The notes under the pieces: generated by a model
Database searches by the model: none
What the model saw: only the letters and a program-made list of their open reading frames with translations
Told to the model about the DNA's origin: nothing
Shown here: positions 25,076 through 59,984 of the stretch, one piece after another
Numbering within the stretch: position 1 is the first letter of the stretch
Layout of the letters: each line of letters begins with the position of its first letter
NCBI GenBank assembly: GCA_964524005.1
Contig: CAZGBK010000001.1
Location: 133,187-197,186 of the forward strand
Source: an uncultured Enterobacteriaceae bacterium
Lineage (GTDB): Bacteria; Pseudomonadota; Gammaproteobacteria; Burkholderiales; UBA3065
Direction of reading: 5' to 3'
DNA length: 64,000 nt
Made by a program: the position numbers and the translations under genes

Positions 25076-25447
25076 GTGAAGTTGGCCAGACAGTCGCTGT
25101 ACGGTTCACCGTATGGAGGAAAGTCCGGGCTCCGCAGAGCAGGATGCCGGCTAACGGCCGGACGCCGTGAGGCGATGGACAGGGCAACAGAAAGCAAACC
25201 GCCGAAGCGCCCGCAAGGGCGCTGGCAAGGGTGAAATGGTGCGGTAAGAGCGCACCGCGGACGTGGCAACACGGACGGCACGGTAACCCCCATCCGGAGC
25301 AAGGCCAAATAGGGACGCTATGGTGTGGCTCGCACCGCGTCCGGGTAGGCTGCTCGAGCCGGTCAGTAATGGCCGGCCCAGATGAATGACTGTCAGCGAC
25401 GGGCAACCGCCGCCCACAGAACCCGGCTTATCGGCCAACTTCACCCT
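25076..25447 (+). ncRNA. rnpB: RNase P RNA, bacterial type A
   Basis: Near-collinear with E. coli M1 RNA: GAAGTTGGCCAGACAGTCGC 5' end, GAGGAAAGTCCGGGCTCC, ACAGAAAGCAAACCGCC, GGTAAGAGCGCACCGCG, AGCAAGGCCAAATAGGG, GGGTAGGCTGCTCGAGCC, AGATGAATGACTGTC, ACAGAACCCGGCTTATCGGCCAACTTCACCC. The P1 helix pairs the two ends. End coordinates are good to a few nt. Confidence 0.95.
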
Positions 25448-43571: not shown

Positions 43572-44114
43572 TCAGGGGTTGCGACTGCGACCGCGCTGCT
43601 CGCTCGTCTGGGGAGCCTGTTCGCCGGTCCAACGATCCGCTGGGCTTGCCGCTTCGCTGGCGCCTGACGCCGCGCGCTCCAACAGGCTGGCCACCGCATC
43701 GCGCAGACCGCCCTCCGGCAGGCGCTGCTGCAGTGCCGTCAGGCTGCGCTGGGCAGCGGCTGCCAACCGCGGTACCCGGCGTGGCCGCTGTGCGGGCAAG
43801 CTCAATCGGCTGGGAGTGGCAACCTTCACCTTCACTGCATCGACAGCCAAGCCTCGCTCGGACAGACCGCGCCGCACCCGTGCCTGCACCTGCCGCAACC
43901 GCGTGGCCACTGCCGGGGAGTCGGCGCGCAACAGCAAGGTACCGGCCTCGAGCCGCACCGGATGCACGGCAGTCAGAATGTCCAGCGGCAGCAAGTCGAA
44001 CAACGCCGCCTCGCAAGCACGCAACGCGACGCGTCCCTGGAGCAGCGTGCCCATTGGGGTGTCGTCAAGCAACGAAGACAGCGGCAGCAAACCGCGCGAA
44101 CAGGTCTCGGTCAT
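43572..44114 (-). CDS. DUF721/DciA-like protein
   Basis: 180 aa. The N-terminal part resembles the DUF721 pattern (V.LE.GTLLLRADS.AVATRLR). DUF721 genes commonly sit just after lpxC in beta/gammaproteobacteria. The assignment comes from pattern and context only. Confidence 0.45.
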   Translation of the reverse strand: MTETCSRGLLPLSSLLDDTPMGTLLQGRVALRACEAALFDLLPLDILTAVHPVRLEAGTLLLRADSPAVATRLRQVQARVRRGLSERGLAVDAVKVKVATPSRLSLPAQRPRRVPRLAAAAQRSLTALQQRLPEGGLRDAVASLLERAASGASEAASPADRWTGEQAPQTSEQRGRSRNP

Positions 44115-44537: not shown

Positions 44538-45278
44538 ATGCGGCCTGTCGGTATTGTGCGCTTTGCACCCACAGAAGGACCGGCGTGGTTCGCCAGCTGG
44601 CTCACCGCTGCTGCCATCCCGTGGAAGGAGATCCGCCTGGACCAGGGCGAGCCCTTGCCCGCCGATACTTCGACGCTAAGTGGCCTAGGCCTAATGGGTG
44701 GGCCGATGAGCGTCAACGACCCGCTGCCCTGGGTTCCGCCACTGCTCGCCCTGATCCGCGATGCCGACCAACGTGGCGCGCCGGTGATCGGCCACTGTCT
44801 GGGAGGACAGCTGATCAGCCGAGCATTTGGTGGCCACGTTGGCATCAATATGGTCGATGGCGCACCAGCGAAGGAAATAGGCTGGCACACCGTTACGCCC
44901 GTCGACACCGAGCAGGCCCGCGACTGGTTCGGCACCCGCCTGGACTTTGATGTCTTTCAATGGCATGGCGAGACCTTTAGCACCCCGCCAGGAGCGATAC
45001 ACCTTGCAGCCAGCGCCCGATGCGCGAACCAGGCGTTTGCGATCGGACCTCACCTAGGCATGCAGTTCCACTGCGAGATGGACGAAGCGACGATCGCCAC
45101 CTGGTGCCAGAGCGGCGCCGACGAGGTCGCTGAAGCGCTTGCTGGACCACACCCCGAGGGCGTACAGGATGCCGCCACTGTCATGCACGCCACACCGGAA
45201 CGATTGCCGTGTATGCGAGCTATCAGCCGGCGGATCTACGAACGCTGGGCGGCCGGTCTGCGACGCGAGCGCCAATAA
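44538..45278 (+). CDS. Class I (type 1) glutamine amidotransferase-like protein
   Basis: 246 aa. GATase1 nucleophile elbow GHCLGGQL and a downstream His (QFH.E) region. Confidence 0.75.
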   Translation: MRPVGIVRFAPTEGPAWFASWLTAAAIPWKEIRLDQGEPLPADTSTLSGLGLMGGPMSVNDPLPWVPPLLALIRDADQRGAPVIGHCLGGQLISRAFGGHVGINMVDGAPAKEIGWHTVTPVDTEQARDWFGTRLDFDVFQWHGETFSTPPGAIHLAASARCANQAFAIGPHLGMQFHCEMDEATIATWCQSGADEVAEALAGPHPEGVQDAATVMHATPERLPCMRAISRRIYERWAAGLRRERQ

Positions 45279-46229: not shown

Positions 46230-46502
46230 TCATGAGACCGGGCGTTGACTGAGGGCCCGGCGGTACCGCGCCCAGAGATACGCATCCATGACCATGATGG
46301 CGTAGATGAAAAAGCCGCCCGCGTGGCGGCCGATGAAGGAATGCTCGGGGGTGGTCAGGCGGTACGTCACCATGCCTAACGCAAACGCGAAGAACAGCAT
46401 CACCCACGCGCGGACCAGCATGCCATTCAGCACTTGGCCCATCCCGGGCAACACGATGGCAACAGCCAACACCAGCACGGGGGGCAATGGTCGGCGTGCC
46501 AT
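46230..46502 (-). CDS. Small polytopic membrane protein, unknown function
   Basis: 90 aa with 2-3 hydrophobic helices and an LPGMGQVLNG motif. Start lies 1 nt after the stop of the upstream gene. Confidence 0.5.
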   Translation of the reverse strand: MARRPLPPVLVLAVAIVLPGMGQVLNGMLVRAWVMLFFAFALGMVTYRLTTPEHSFIGRHAGGFFIYAIMVMDAYLWARYRRALSQRPVS

Positions 46503-46503
46503 C

Positions 46504-47196
46504 TCAACGACGCTCCAATTCCTTGTCGTGCAACCCGGTCGCCAACGAACGGGCCTTCGCCAACCAGGTTATAAGCCACTCGGACGGGATGCGTTCGATC
46601 TCCGGCAGCATCGAGCGCAAGACCATGTAGTGGCTACGCTCCACTCCGCACACGCGCACCACCAGGCGTATGCCCTTCGGCGTGACAACGATCTCCTTGA
46701 GGTCAGTGCTGTCGATAGCCTCACCGAGTGCCGCATGCATTTGCGCCAGCGGCGGCCTCCATCCGACCGGGCCAACCCGGGCCATGTGGTGCTCGGGCCA
46801 CTCACTGCCGAGGTAGACCCGTTCCGGCAGGCGGTCGATCGAGGAGAAGAATTCGATATTCGCTGGCCGGAATACGATGTCCACACGACCCTCTACCGGC
46901 AACGGCCGATCGACGGTGATGAGCAACCATAGCGACGGCACCTTTCGGTATCCGACATGGTCGAGCAGGGGTTGGAGCATCACCTGCTCGCCCTCGAAGC
47001 ACCCTCGCAGCAAAGGGTAGTCGCTACCTGGCGAGATCAACTCGGCGCCCTGCAGCACCGCTCGGCAGTCATCGAAGATACTGGCCCGGCGAGCACGAAA
47101 ACGCGCCTGCGCCCGACGCTGCCAGAACCAGGCCGCCGCCACCCCGACAAGGGCGACGGCGACGCCGGCGGACGACATCTCGGCCATGTGTTGCAC
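46504..47196 (-). CDS. N-terminally membrane-anchored protein, unknown function
   Basis: About 227-230 aa (GTG 47196, or ATG 47187 with an AGGTG SD). One TM helix followed by an Arg-rich stretch, then a ~190 aa domain with no motif I recognise. Confidence 0.5.
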   Translation of the reverse strand: MQHMAEMSSAGVAVALVGVAAAWFWQRRAQARFRARRASIFDDCRAVLQGAELISPGSDYPLLRGCFEGEQVMLQPLLDHVGYRKVPSLWLLITVDRPLPVEGRVDIVFRPANIEFFSSIDRLPERVYLGSEWPEHHMARVGPVGWRPPLAQMHAALGEAIDSTDLKEIVVTPKGIRLVVRVCGVERSHYMVLRSMLPEIERIPSEWLITWLAKARSLATGLHDKELERR

Positions 47197-47236
47197 CTAG
47201 ACGAAGATGCTGTCCAAGAGCGCGTAACCACGCATC

Positions 47237-48631
47237 TCAGTAGCCCCGCGGACGCGGCCACGGCATGGTGAACTGATCACCCCGACGCACGTACTGGTAG
47301 CGCCGCAACACGAACCAGACCGAGATCAGGATGTAGAACGCCATGATCGACAGCAGTGAGGCGCCATAGCCAAGATAGGTGGCGAAGTAGGTCGCGGCAC
47401 ACAACAAGCCGAGCAGGATCGCCGGCAGCGGATGGAACGGATGGATGTAGCCACGGTTGATCACACCCAACGGCCATAGTCGCCGGAACCGCACGATGTT
47501 GAAGGACATGAAGGTATAGCCGAGCAGGCCCGACAGGATCGAGAAGGTGATCACCTGGTCCAACAAACCAGTAAAGGCGAACGACACTGCGATCGGGATC
47601 AGAAACAGGATGGCCCGATAGGGAGTGCGATAACGCGGGTGTACCGCACCGAACCACTGCGGCATATAGCGATCGCGCGCCATCGAGAACCAGGCCCGCG
47701 AGGCATCGTTGATGCAGCCATTGGCTGAGGCCACCGCAGCGAAGATGGTGCCGATGAACAGGATCACCTCGAGTTCTAGGCTACCGCTCAGGCGTCCAGC
47801 ATCGTACAGCGGTGTAACCGCCTGGCCCAGATACTCCCAAGGCATCAGACCGGCACAGACATACCAGGTCATGGTCGCGGCGATGAGCAGAGTGATGATC
47901 CCGCCCATCGTGCCCAACGGGATCGAGCGGCCCGGCGACCGCACCTCTTCGGCCGCCTGACAGGTGCCCTCGATGCCAAGGTAGTACCACATGCCGAACT
48001 GCAAGGCGGCTAGCACCCCCAGCCAACCATAGGGGAGATCCGTGAGCAACTCGCTGTGCCGCAGGATCGATTCGCCGCCACCGAGACCGCTGGTGCTGAA
48101 GAACAGCACCACGATCGCCGCGAACGCGAACGCGGTGATGACAAAGTTCACCGTGAGCGTCATGAACACGCCGCGATAGTTGAGCCAAGCCAAGATGGCG
48201 ATGGTCAACACCACGAATGGCTTGGTGTCCACGTCAGCACCATACTGGGCCGCCACTGTCTGCACCAGATCGCCGACCACGAGGGCGTCCGCGGCTTCCA
48301 GCATGGTGTAGGCCATCACCAGATAGAGCCCGACGTTAAAGGCCATGAGGGGCCCGATGATGTGTTTAGCCTGGGTGTATTGCCCCCCGGCCGCAGCCAC
48401 CGTTGAGGTCACCTCGGAGTCGATCATCGCTACGCAGGTATAGAGCAAGCCAATGATCCAGCAGGCGATGAGGGCCCCAAACGCGCCTCCCTTGCCAACC
48501 GAGAAGTTCCAGCCCATGTATTCGCCGACTAGCACGATCCCTACACCCAGAGCCCAGACGTGAATCGGGCCGAGGACCTTCAGCAGCGAATTCTTCTGTG
48601 GCGGGCTGGCCGCCATTGCGGATGTACTCAT
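47237..48631 (-). CDS. APC-superfamily permease (ethanolamine permease Eat/EutP-like); candidate methylamine-related transporter
   Basis: 464 aa, about 12 TM helices, APC-type N-terminus (LG..HVWALGVGIV..GEY.GWN). SD AGGAG. Confidence 0.8.
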   Translation of the reverse strand: MSTSAMAASPPQKNSLLKVLGPIHVWALGVGIVLVGEYMGWNFSVGKGGAFGALIACWIIGLLYTCVAMIDSEVTSTVAAAGGQYTQAKHIIGPLMAFNVGLYLVMAYTMLEAADALVVGDLVQTVAAQYGADVDTKPFVVLTIAILAWLNYRGVFMTLTVNFVITAFAFAAIVVLFFSTSGLGGGESILRHSELLTDLPYGWLGVLAALQFGMWYYLGIEGTCQAAEEVRSPGRSIPLGTMGGIITLLIAATMTWYVCAGLMPWEYLGQAVTPLYDAGRLSGSLELEVILFIGTIFAAVASANGCINDASRAWFSMARDRYMPQWFGAVHPRYRTPYRAILFLIPIAVSFAFTGLLDQVITFSILSGLLGYTFMSFNIVRFRRLWPLGVINRGYIHPFHPLPAILLGLLCAATYFATYLGYGASLLSIMAFYILISVWFVLRRYQYVRRGDQFTMPWPRPRGY

Positions 48632-48640
48632 GTGCGGCTC

Positions 48641-48784
48641 CTATTCCTCTTCGCCTTCGCGCGAACTCAGCAGGAAGTCTTCGCCGTACTGCGAGCTGGT
48701 GAATCGGGCGTCGGCGATCATCCAACCGAACAGCACGATCGAGATCCCCCAGGCGGCGTATTCAAGCGCGGTCCAGAAGTCCAT
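48641..48784 (-). CDS. 47-aa single-TM protein with acidic tail, unknown function
   Basis: ATG 48784 lies 1 nt after the upstream stop, with SD GGGAGGG inside the upstream gene's last codons. Its stop is 9 nt before the permease ATG. Confidence 0.45.
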   Translation of the reverse strand: MDFWTALEYAAWGISIVLFGWMIADARFTSSQYGEDFLLSSREGEEE

Positions 48785-48785
48785 G

Positions 48786-49178
48786 TCATTTCCCTCCCGT
48801 CGAGCCGAAACGTTCGCGGATGACCTCGCGATATTCCCGGTCGGACGTGCGCAGTACGAAGATGAAGTAACCAACGATCACGGCGATGGTCAGCGACAGG
48901 CTCCATGGTTCGATGGTGTAGTCGAAGCGGTTGGTGATCAGCGGGGCAGCGTCTTCGATGCCGACGCCAAGCTTCTCCCATTGTTCAACCATGGCCGGGG
49001 TCTGCCCTAAGGCTTCCCAAGTGGGAGCTTCGGCCTCGACAACCGGCTCTGTCCCGGTTCCGCCAGAAAACAGCAGCGGCGCCATCAGACTGGCATACAC
49101 GAGCACCAGGACGACGAGGCTATCGAACAGCTGTCCGGCAGTGCCCTGCACGGGCGGTTCATAGGGTTTGCTCATCAT
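48786..49178 (-). CDS. 130-aa two-TM membrane protein, unknown function
   Basis: ATG 49178 overlaps the upstream stop (ATGA). Two hydrophobic helices flank a ~60 aa acidic loop. The ORF's upstream extension to 49433 was rejected. Confidence 0.5.
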   Translation of the reverse strand: MMSKPYEPPVQGTAGQLFDSLVVLVLVYASLMAPLLFSGGTGTEPVVEAEAPTWEALGQTPAMVEQWEKLGVGIEDAAPLITNRFDYTIEPWSLSLTIAVIVGYFIFVLRTSDREYREVIRERFGSTGGK

Positions 49179-49537
49179 GGCGCTCCGGGTTCGGTATCGA
49201 CATGAGCGGGCCGCAGCGAAAGTTCGCTCAGGCGCTGGCGGTTCAGGTCGAGGTTGCGAAGGTCCTGGCCATAGATGTGATCGCGATCTTCGCGATAGTG
49301 GGCCAGCATGGCGAACACTGCCGCCGTATTGAAGATCAGTACCAACGATCCGGCGACCAGCAGAACGACACCGATGGGCGACTCTAAAAACCCATGCGGT
49401 ACGACGATGTACACATAGATAAGAATCAACCACAAAAACGCCAAGATGCCCAAGGCGCTCCAGCGGTCACGGGTGTGCATTGCTTCGGCCCGCGCGGCGG
49501 TCGCTGGGTCGAGCGTGTGAGCAGTCTCTCTTTCCAT
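49175..49537 (-). CDS. 120-aa two-TM membrane protein, unknown function
   Basis: Strong SD GGAGGGGG 6 nt before ATG 49537. Two adjacent hydrophobic helices. Confidence 0.5.
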   Translation of the reverse strand: MERETAHTLDPATAARAEAMHTRDRWSALGILAFLWLILIYVYIVVPHGFLESPIGVVLLVAGSLVLIFNTAAVFAMLAHYREDRDHIYGQDLRNLDLNRQRLSELSLRPAHVDTEPGAP

Positions 49538-49700
49538 CTGAATCCCCCTCCAAAAATCGTTTTTATGAGATGGATAAAACGCCGACTGTTAATGGTGAGC
49601 AGTGAAGTGTGTGATCGCCTCCTTTATCGATAACGCTTAAATGCCAATGTCATAAAGTGGGTGCTGCATGGTGACCGAAGCCTGGTCGAGGCGCAAATGA

Positions 49701-59333: not shown

Positions 59334-59984
59334 ATGGGTGAACACATGACACCGCCCAGTCGACCTGAGCCCAGCCCGGCTGTCGACACCTCCGTTCTCG
59401 ACGGCGTAGCCTTGGGGCGTTGCTTGGGCACGGCGCTGCGCGAGCAGCGTTTGGCGCACAAGCTCACGATTGCCGATGTCGCCGAACGCGCTGGCATCTC
59501 GCGGGGCATGCTGTCGAAGATCGAGAATGGCCAAAGCGCGACTAGCCTCGAGACCCTGCATCGCCTGGCCCGCGCTCTGGGCGTGTCGTTGTCGGCACTG
59601 TTCCGCGATGTCGATGTGATCGAGGGTGATGCTCAATTGATTCGAGCTGGTGAAGGGATGGAAGTGGTTCGGCGCGGAACCAAGCGCGGACACACTTACC
59701 AGTTGCTGGCCTACGACCAAGGCCCGAAAAAGCTGTTTGAGCCGTTCCTGATCAGCCTGGACGACGCATCGGAGGTGTTTCCGACGTTTCAGCATCCAGG
59801 CACCGAGTTCATCCACATGCTGCAAGGCCGCATGGCCTATCGGCATGGCAACGACACACACGAGCTCGGCCCCGGGGACACCCTGACCTTTCGTGGCGAC
59901 GTACCCCACGGACCCGAGGTCTTGCGCGAAACACCGATCCGCTTCCTCGCGATCATCGTTTACGGCGACGCTGGCGAATCATGA
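59334..59984 (+). CDS. XRE-family HTH + cupin domain transcriptional regulator (PuuR-like architecture)
   Basis: HTH segment LTIADVAERAGISRGMLSKIENG and a C-terminal cupin (HPGTEFIHMLQG...GD). Divergent from mgdA. Start is 59334 or 59346. Confidence 0.8.
   Translation: MGEHMTPPSRPEPSPAVDTSVLDGVALGRCLGTALREQRLAHKLTIADVAERAGISRGMLSKIENGQSATSLETLHRLARALGVSLSALFRDVDVIEGDAQLIRAGEGMEVVRRGTKRGHTYQLLAYDQGPKKLFEPFLISLDDASEVFPTFQHPGTEFIHMLQGRMAYRHGNDTHELGPGDTLTFRGDVPHGPEVLRETPIRFLAIIVYGDAGES

Follow-up and report, generated by a model that had tools for sequence, protein, structure and literature searches.

Six co-directional genes attached to a methylamine operon form one conserved, co-inherited unit that is restricted to a single permease clade. 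We describe them in a 64,000-nucleotide stretch of DNA from an uncultured Enterobacteriaceae bacterium (contig CAZGBK010000001.1; the whole stretch is referred to here as the window), where they encode a permease of the APC superfamily (O4), related to the ethanolamine permease Eat, and five further membrane proteins (O1, O2, O3, O5 and O6). Across the bacteria that carry it, this cassette is placed preferentially with genes for the catabolism of monomethylamine or other methylated amines. We see an even chance that the permease and its five dedicated membrane proteins are a unit serving monomethylamine catabolism through the N-methylglutamate (NMG) pathway, and the cassette is at present the strongest candidate for the methylamine uptake system of NMG bacteria. 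A more specific proposal, which we hold only tentatively, is that the cassette specifies a hetero-oligomeric secondary transporter, the inducible methylamine uptake system of these organisms. The APC permease would then work only together with five subunits (six in many genomes) from new families, one of them with a fold absent from the PDB. What would be new here, judging from the sequences, is the unusual set of partner proteins that are dedicated to one APC transporter and drawn from five unnamed families.

Methylated amines are major sources of carbon and nitrogen in soils, lakes and oceans, and the enzymes of the NMG pathway are well studied. How does methylamine reach these enzymes? In current models its entry is drawn as an 'unidentified transporter'. 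The cassette is a concrete candidate for this gap, one through which the question of what transports methylamine can be tested directly. It is as conserved as the enzymes of the pathway, is present in at least 477 species genomes and defines five protein families that have neither a name nor a structure. If the small proteins are indeed obligate subunits, this would be the first case in which a bacterial APC transporter is shown to depend on partner subunits. The cassette would in addition supply a set of markers with which methylamine use could be tracked in metagenomes.

An earlier reading of the DNA letters (the original prediction) placed six minus-strand open reading frames (ORFs) between 46230 and 49537, beyond mgsC and a 163-nucleotide AT-rich spacer, and described them as packed with coupling-type junctions. 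All six are found at these positions (Table 1). The spacer is 163 nucleotides long and has a G+C content of 47%, compared with 64.8% for the window as a whole. The O1 and O2 genes overlap in an ATGA sequence, O3 and O6 each start 1 nucleotide past the stop codon of the preceding gene (O2 and O5, respectively), and the permease starts 9 nucleotides past the O3 stop. The Shine-Dalgarno sequences ascribed to O1, O3 and the permease are present as well. Two of the proposed start codons fared less well, since public gene calls begin later: O2 is called from its second ATG (129 amino acids), and O5 from the ATG at 47187 (227 amino acids), its likely start, rather than from the GTG at 47196.

Table 1. 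Positions of the cassette, the adjoining methylamine genes and other features of the window
Feature	Position	Strand	Remark
O1, 120 aa	49537-49175	minus	
O2, 130 aa	49178-48786	minus	
O3, 47 aa	48784-48641	minus	
O4, APC-superfamily permease, 464 aa	48631-47237	minus	
Conserved C-terminal tail of O4	47237-47290	minus	last ~15 residues
O5, 227-230 aa	47196-46504	minus	
O6, 90 aa	46502-46230	minus	polytopic
Spacer mgsC-O1, 163 nt	49538-49700	minus	
Conserved 3' third of spacer, minus strand	49538-49600		
mgsA, mgsB, mgsC	low-coordinate end 49701	minus	after gmaS
gmaS	54133-52748	minus	after mgdD
mgdC	57685-54788	minus	
mgdA	59182-57941	minus	then mgdB, mgdC, mgdD (high to low coordinates)
TorF/Gcw_chp-family outer-membrane porin, 263 aa	46115-45324	minus	114 nt past O6
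Amt-family ammonium transporter	62148-60631	minus	PF00909, 7e-125; upstream of mgd operon
Second TorF/Gcw_chp porin	63220-62450	minus	precedes amt; 72% identical to porin after O6
XRE-type helix-turn-helix (HTH) and cupin regulator	59334-59984	plus	divergent from mgdA
Class-I glutamine amidotransferase	44538-45278	plus	convergent to porin
DciA-family (DnaC/DnaI antecedent) gene	43572-44114	minus	PF05258, 4e-8
RNase P RNA, class A	25078-25446	plus	RF00010, 330.8 bits; unrelated to cassette

All six ORFs are real genes. We computed ratios of nonsynonymous to synonymous change (dN/dS) against four close relatives, with synonymous sites near saturation, and obtained 0.11-0.16 for O1, 0.13-0.21 for O2, 0.03-0.06 for O3, 0.05-0.07 for the permease, 0.11-0.25 for O5 and 0.08-0.10 for O6. 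Purifying selection acts on all of them and is strongest on the permease and on O3, the smallest of the products, whose dN/dS is as low as that of the permease. The exact sequences of all six are gene calls on one 227-kb public contig, and many public contigs carry gene calls for members of the O3 cluster, with as many as 428 contigs for one member. Each small ORF is kept, in the same order and on the same strand, in 77-83 of 83 fetched loci from related and distant genomes: O1 in 82, directly upstream of O2; O3 in all 83; and O6 in 78, its absences being at contig ends. The family alignments of the small proteins contain invariant motifs.

The five proteins other than the permease had been said to carry no recognized motif, and profile searches bear this out. 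No Pfam or NCBIfam family matches O1, O2, O3, O5 or O6 from the window. Searches with every member of the O1, O5 and O6 alignments against the same databases returned only transmembrane noise (FA_desaturase, DUF4153) or sub-threshold matches of the DUF5683 type, and PDB profile searches with O1, O2, O5 and O6 gave no match at E up to 1. Across the Pfam, NCBIfam and PDB searches, then, none of the small proteins matched a characterized family unrelated to transport.

The distribution of the cassette identifies it as a unit. We scanned one genome per species, 185,579 species in all, with a profile of O2, found relatives in 477 of them and fetched 80 loci. Searched by tblastn with the window proteins as queries, all 80 show the order O1-O2-O3-permease-O5-O6 on one strand, with gaps only at contig ends and with junctions mostly between -4 and about +80 nucleotides. 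The carriers belong to three classes. Among the Betaproteobacteria they include Oxalobacteraceae and Burkholderiaceae metagenome-assembled genomes, Methyloversatilis, Methylotenera, Ca. Methylopumilus and Paraburkholderia; among the Alphaproteobacteria, Methylobacterium/Methylorubrum, Methyloceanibacter, Methyloligella, Hyphomicrobiaceae, Roseovarius, Sedimentitalea and Aurantimonas; and among the Gammaproteobacteria, Methylophaga, Arenicellales and Pseudomonadales. O2 has 309 homologues, every one labelled hypothetical, from Rhodocyclaceae, Burkholderiales, Methylophilaceae, Methylobacterium, Methyloligella, Roseovarius and gammaproteobacteria.

A second, independent test set of 72,556 plasmid and chromid records gave the same picture. 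Permease orthologues at 68-81% identity occur in 22 records, and all further permease matches are at most 31% identical and annotated as Eat or amino acid permease. O2 matches exactly 22 records, with the same breakdown by organism as the permease orthologues, and the more divergent O5 matches 17 of the 22. RefSeq labels the small genes in these records 'hypothetical protein'. The co-occurrence of the small ORFs with Eat-like permeases, which the original prediction had proposed as a check, is thus one-to-one with a distinct clade, and it holds for all 80 loci and for all 22 plasmid records.

What kind of transporter is the permease? It matches PF00324 (AA_permease) over residues 32-442 (6e-30, 104.7 bits; cut-off 24.6) and PF13520 (92.4 bits; cut-off 27). 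Its best NCBIfam match is the ethanolamine permease TIGR00908, at 182.2 bits, below the equivalog cut-off of 381.75; AdiC and PotE are also among its NCBIfam matches. The nearest solved structures are SLC7, CAT transporters and GkApcT-type proteins, with E values of about 1e-14. Within the cassette clade the permease is 69-92% identical across classes, versus 27-32% to annotated Eat. When the clade is aligned with two annotated Eat proteins, a motif in transmembrane helix 1 (TM1), G.V..GE(Y/F).GW, with its invariant Glu, and one in TM6, IEG..AAEE, are invariant; in the cassette permease the TM1 motif reads GIVLVGE(Y/F)MGWNF. The C-terminal tail of the permease, RRGDQFTMPWPRPRGY / RRGDQFTMPWPRPxGY, is almost invariant across the three classes, with conservation that reaches its last residue within the clade, and is absent from Eat. 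On these comparisons the permease is a distinct clade sister to the ethanolamine permeases. The TM1 and TM6 motifs fit a small primary amine as the substrate, and the conserved tail suggests a docking site for a cytoplasmic partner. A gamma-glutamyl intermediate, which the original prediction had offered as an alternative substrate, is unlikely, because the Eat-type TM1 motif GE(Y/F)xGW is typical of carriers of small primary amines and because such intermediates are made inside the cell.

The proteins encoded immediately upstream of the permease are short membrane proteins. O1 is a hairpin of two TM helices with both ends predicted to be cytoplasmic; TM2 is followed by the motif LFNTA...AM.RHY.EDxD.IYG.D..HLD, and the alignment has invariant residues at N70 (an Asn in TM2), I88, Y89, D92 and D97. 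At its N-terminus O2 has the motif YxPPxQ..GQ..D, which is followed in turn by TM1, a variable acidic linker, a conserved helix-hairpin (TWESLGQ....QWEKLG....A....NRFDYT), TM2 and a C-terminal helix with the sequence SDKEYREVIxERF. The loop between the two TM helices is predicted to be periplasmic because of its net negative charge. In an AlphaFold2 (AF2) model of O2 (pLDDT 79.5, pTM 0.35) these parts appear as a TM helix, a disordered acidic linker, two short helices and a long TM-plus-cytoplasmic helix, which together give the protein an extended, helical, subunit-like shape. O3 has one TM helix and a conserved acidic tail (..Y.ED.LLSSREG.., in which SS.EG is invariant); its invariant residues are A11, W12, D25, L38, S40, E43 and G44.

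The two proteins encoded downstream of the permease are of different design. O5 is anchored by a TM helix at its N-terminus, after which come an Arg-rich stretch, a soluble domain rich in beta structure and a helix at the C-terminus; the domain is predicted to be cytoplasmic because the Arg-rich stretch precedes it. The AF2 model of O5, built from 27 sequences of 43-68% identity, is confident (pLDDT 87.5, pTM 0.84), and Foldseek finds no fold neighbor for it in the PDB (best E 0.31, TM-score <0.25). A profile search recovered 384 cluster representatives of the O5 family in 1.84 billion proteins; the best 150 are at most 315 amino acids long, mostly about 220-235, and none is long enough for a fusion to another cassette protein. 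O6 carries the motifs LPGxGQvlnG...R and GR.AGG...Y.....DAY. The window protein matches DUF5683/DUF7533/DUF6677 below threshold (18.5 vs 26.7 bits), as do 19 of 28 orthologues, which reach E values down to 9e-5 through the PGxGQ helix only and stay below the gathering score.

Which catabolic genes does the cassette accompany? The original prediction had called for a comparison with gmaS, mgs and mgd, and these are frequently adjacent. Within 10 kb of the cassette, gmaS is found in 48 of 80 loci, mgsC in 40, mgsA and mgsB in 39 each, mgdC in 36 and mgdA in 35 (34-36 for the mgd genes overall), all of which are lower bounds because many contigs are short. NMG pathway genes thus lie within this distance in about half to 60% of loci. 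The arrangement varies. In betaproteobacterial methylotrophs (the window, Methyloversatilis and Methylophilaceae) the cassette is appended to mgdABCD-gmaS-mgsABC; Methylobacterium has the cassette, an AraC/GlxA-type regulator and mgdABCD; and on pAMI6 of Paracoccus aminophilus the cassette is divergent from mgsABC-gmaS. In Sinorhizobium meliloti Ak57 it lies between tdm-tmm-dmmDABC-purU-XRE and gmaS-mgsCBA-glxA-mgdABCD, and Aminobacter NyZ550 carries it on the methylotrophy plasmid pMET1, near ppc-glyA-secR2. In Paraburkholderia franconis it stands between Fae and a GcvT-type aminomethyltransferase, and in Methyloligella it has only housekeeping genes around it. Wherever catabolic genes are present in these contexts, the one substrate that they share is monomethylamine. 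The P. franconis locus (L041 150-6299, 6852-14349) has no NMG genes nearby; it also contains a nitronate-monooxygenase-like gene and, upstream, two transposase genes, which suggest that the block is mobile.

Our literature search found no publication that describes the cassette, and the supplementary expression tables for Methyloversatilis, Aminobacter NyZ550 and Ruegeria do not include its genes. Growth of Methyloversatilis universalis on methylamine raises the 'co-clustered conserved proteins' of its NMG cluster 6-10-fold, and the same study mentions induced amino-acid permease homologues that it does not list (PMC5023235). Aminobacter NyZ550 has the cassette on its plasmid, and a model from 2026 of how this strain assimilates methylamine still contains 'MA transporters' and 'an unidentified sensor system' (PMC13199381).

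From the evidence above we infer that the proteins associate physically, which substrate they carry and in which direction, and what each small protein does. The permease would bring CH3NH3+, a small cation, through the inner membrane and deliver it to GmaS. The genes for O1, O2 and O3 stand directly upstream and are coupled in translation; their products may be accessory subunits of the permease, with O2 placing its acidic conserved helix-hairpin in the periplasm. O5 and O6, joined in many genomes by a Usp protein, could form a regulatory or gating part on the cytoplasmic side; the insertion of a Usp gene after the permease in many loci, and its fusion to the permease C-terminus in two Methyloceanibacter species, indicates a cytoplasmic partner at the conserved tail. 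The TorF-type porin encoded downstream might, in this genome, provide the route through the outer membrane. What stands of the original prediction is an uncharacterized membrane module tied to methylamine catabolism, on the grounds of conservation, co-occurrence and adjacency to gmaS, mgs and mgd. Its gamma-glutamyl alternative is unlikely, and we infer, rather than observe, a single complex and methylammonium as its cargo.

Several points weigh against a cassette that serves methylamine uptake in this way. The six proteins give only moderate distance-matrix (mirror-tree) correlations with one another (0.29-0.68); these come without a control, and for these reasons we give them no weight. In about 40% of loci, for example in Methyloligella and Methyloceanibacter, there are no NMG genes within 10 kb. 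Amt proteins conduct methylammonium, and the window encodes an Amt with its own TorF porin, so that the cassette might duplicate an existing uptake route or have another function. The methylamine locus is in fact flanked by two pairs of a porin and an inner-membrane transporter, with Amt and the second TorF porin upstream and the first TorF porin downstream, an arrangement that makes 'sole methylamine importer' a less certain description of the cassette. The original prediction had overlooked these genes and the Usp gene of many relatives. Only 2 of 80 loci have amt within 10 kb of the cassette. Elsewhere amt is placed with gmaS-mgs: in Pseudomonas sp. C5pp it lies within a gmaS-mgsABC operon and was taken as the methylamine transporter (PMC8292978). 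Finally, the induced 'co-clustered' genes of Methyloversatilis are unnamed, and hence are no proof that the cassette is induced (PMC5023235).

Could the permease be the sole transport protein, with the five small proteins (and Usp) forming a membrane signalling or regulatory device instead of structural subunits? Such a transceptor or regulated gate would report or limit amine flux, guarding against an overload of methylamine or ammonium or feeding a methylamine sensor. We consider this unlikely, but it is the strongest of the alternatives. The large conserved domain of O5, predicted to be cytoplasmic, is the kind of part that it calls for, and so is the Usp protein (about 143 amino acids), whose gene separates the permease from O5 in 30 of 80 loci and in each of the three classes (for example, L021 11992-12423). 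In the window there is no Usp gene (PF00582) at this place. Methyloceanibacter superfactus and M. methanicus each encode an in-frame fusion of permease and Usp, a single ORF of 611 amino acids (L023 10597-12432; L043 10587-12422), which is a Rosetta-stone indication that a cytoplasmic partner acts at the C-terminus of the permease. In 19 loci the cassette has two-component systems or LuxR-type regulators at its flanks. The methylamine sensor is left unidentified in published models (PMC13199381), and the effector of TmaR is a downstream catabolite, not methylamine itself (PMC13390433). A device of this kind is harder to square with the Pfam and NCBIfam searches, which reveal no recognizable signalling domain (kinase, HTH or cyclase) in any of the five proteins, or with the overlapping start/stop junctions and invariant gene order, which suggest stoichiometric co-production. 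That O3 is as constrained as the permease likewise counts against it.

Somewhat less probable again is a different substrate or direction: export of the ammonium that methylamine releases, CH3NH3+/NH4+ exchange, or uptake of a small amine such as dimethylamine, trimethylamine N-oxide (TMAO) or ethanolamine. Many APC transporters are antiporters of a precursor and its product, and the matches to AdiC and PotE are in keeping with this; TmoP, an APC permease of Methylocella, is reportedly a TMAO permease. The cassette lies beside tdm, tmm and dmm in Sinorhizobium, the loci without nearby NMG genes leave room for other substrates, and in the window Amt is available for the entry of methylammonium. 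Against this, betaproteobacterial carriers join the cassette to a monomethylamine-only operon, with no tmm, tdm or dmm nearby, and the conservation of the permease at 69-92% over all contexts argues for a single substrate. The last alternative, that the small ORFs are annotation noise or unrelated neighbors of a single-polypeptide permease, draws on the facts that bacterial APC permeases are normally single polypeptides and that high-GC DNA gives many spurious ORFs, but it has next to no chance of being right and is refuted by the conservation data: the gene order is kept in 80 loci, dN/dS values lie at 0.03-0.25, each family has invariant motifs of its own, the small ORFs occur exactly where the permease clade does, and RefSeq and metagenomes contain independent gene calls.

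The DNA around the cassette adds some detail. The 3' third of the spacer between mgsC and O1 is kept among close relatives and reads TTATCCATC (GTTyTATCCATC), an A-run and then GGAGGGGG, a Shine-Dalgarno sequence. A AAAGGAGG motif lies in the spacer about 80 nucleotides upstream of the O1 start. Either this motif or the conserved 3' part could be a promoter or operator. A promoter and terminator scan detected no terminator-like or promoter site in the spacer and no terminator-like site in the gap between O6 and the porin, and Rfam no RNA element in the cassette region. We also considered AAAGGAGG as the mark of a leader-peptide ORF; this is ruled out, as no start codon lies downstream of the motif.

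The porin encoded downstream of O6 scores above the cut-offs of its family profiles (PF09694, 5e-54 and 184 bits, cut-off 24; TIGR02001, 168 bits, cut-off 47.15). It follows O6 only in the window and in three Methyloversatilis loci; for this reason it is not a core part of the cassette, and it may be a lineage-specific seventh gene. On the far side of the porin is the class-I glutamine amidotransferase gene, and in the closest relatives (L004, L005, L007 and others) an amidotransferase gene 49-54% identical to it stands directly after O6, on the cassette strand. Relatives of the XRE/cupin regulator encoded next to mgdA (41-50% identity) occur in 9 other loci, no more than 10 kb away from the cassette, and XRE regulators have been noted in published methylated-amine clusters (PMC13199381, PMC7574528). 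In 11 loci, from gammaproteobacteria, alphaproteobacteria and Burkholderiales, a second, unrelated APC permease of 547 amino acids is encoded near the cassette; in L085 (6926-9020) and L049 (7295-8938) it has a Usp gene of its own.

How does the cassette compare with known systems? Its closest relative is Eat, with which the permease shares its fold family (PF00324/PF13520), colinearity over the full length and the TM1 and TM6 motifs. The two differ in that the cassette permease is only 27-32% identical to Eat and scores 182 rather than 381.75 bits against TIGR00908. The eat genes that we examined adjoin eutBC or a primary-amine oxidase, whereas the cassette permease adjoins mgsC and five unnamed membrane proteins. 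These Eat loci lack the five extra genes that always accompany the cassette permease, and Eat lacks the conserved C-terminal tail of the clade.

The small partners of sodium:solute symporters (SSS) offer a second comparison. YjcH/DUF485 with ActP, and DUF4212 or DUF3311 with their symporters, are likewise small proteins of one or two TM helices, encoded immediately upstream of the transporter and translationally coupled to it; O1 would share the two-TM hairpin topology of DUF485 proteins. The symporters belong to the SSS family and have one partner, whereas the cassette has an APC permease and five. Nor do the families coincide: DUF485, DUF4212, DUF3311 and DUF997 are absent among the Pfam matches of O1, O2 and O3 at E up to 1, none of them is found in 26 O1 orthologues at E up to 0.05, and there is no Pfam match in 26 O1 or 20-45 O2 members.

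Among transporters of methylated amines, the nearest characterized protein is TmoP (Msil_3606) of Methylocella silvestris, which is said by Zhu et al. (2014) to be an APC-superfamily TMAO permease that is genetically required for the use of a methylated amine and encoded in a methylated-amine gene island. TmoP reportedly stands alone and is for TMAO; some carriers of the cassette have, in its vicinity, genes for monomethylamine only. Amt/Mep/Rh proteins likewise let methylammonium pass the inner membrane and have a cytoplasmic regulator of their own, GlnK, but in fold and family they are unrelated to the cassette permease. A structural comparison is offered by the SLC7 light chains, which have the closest solved structures to the cassette permease and which, as APC-fold transporters, need a single-pass partner, the SLC3 heavy chain. 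The SLC3 ectodomain is extracellular and glucosidase-like, whereas O5, also single-pass, has a domain that is predicted to be cytoplasmic and is without a PDB fold or sequence neighbor. SLC7/SLC3 is, moreover, a eukaryotic system.

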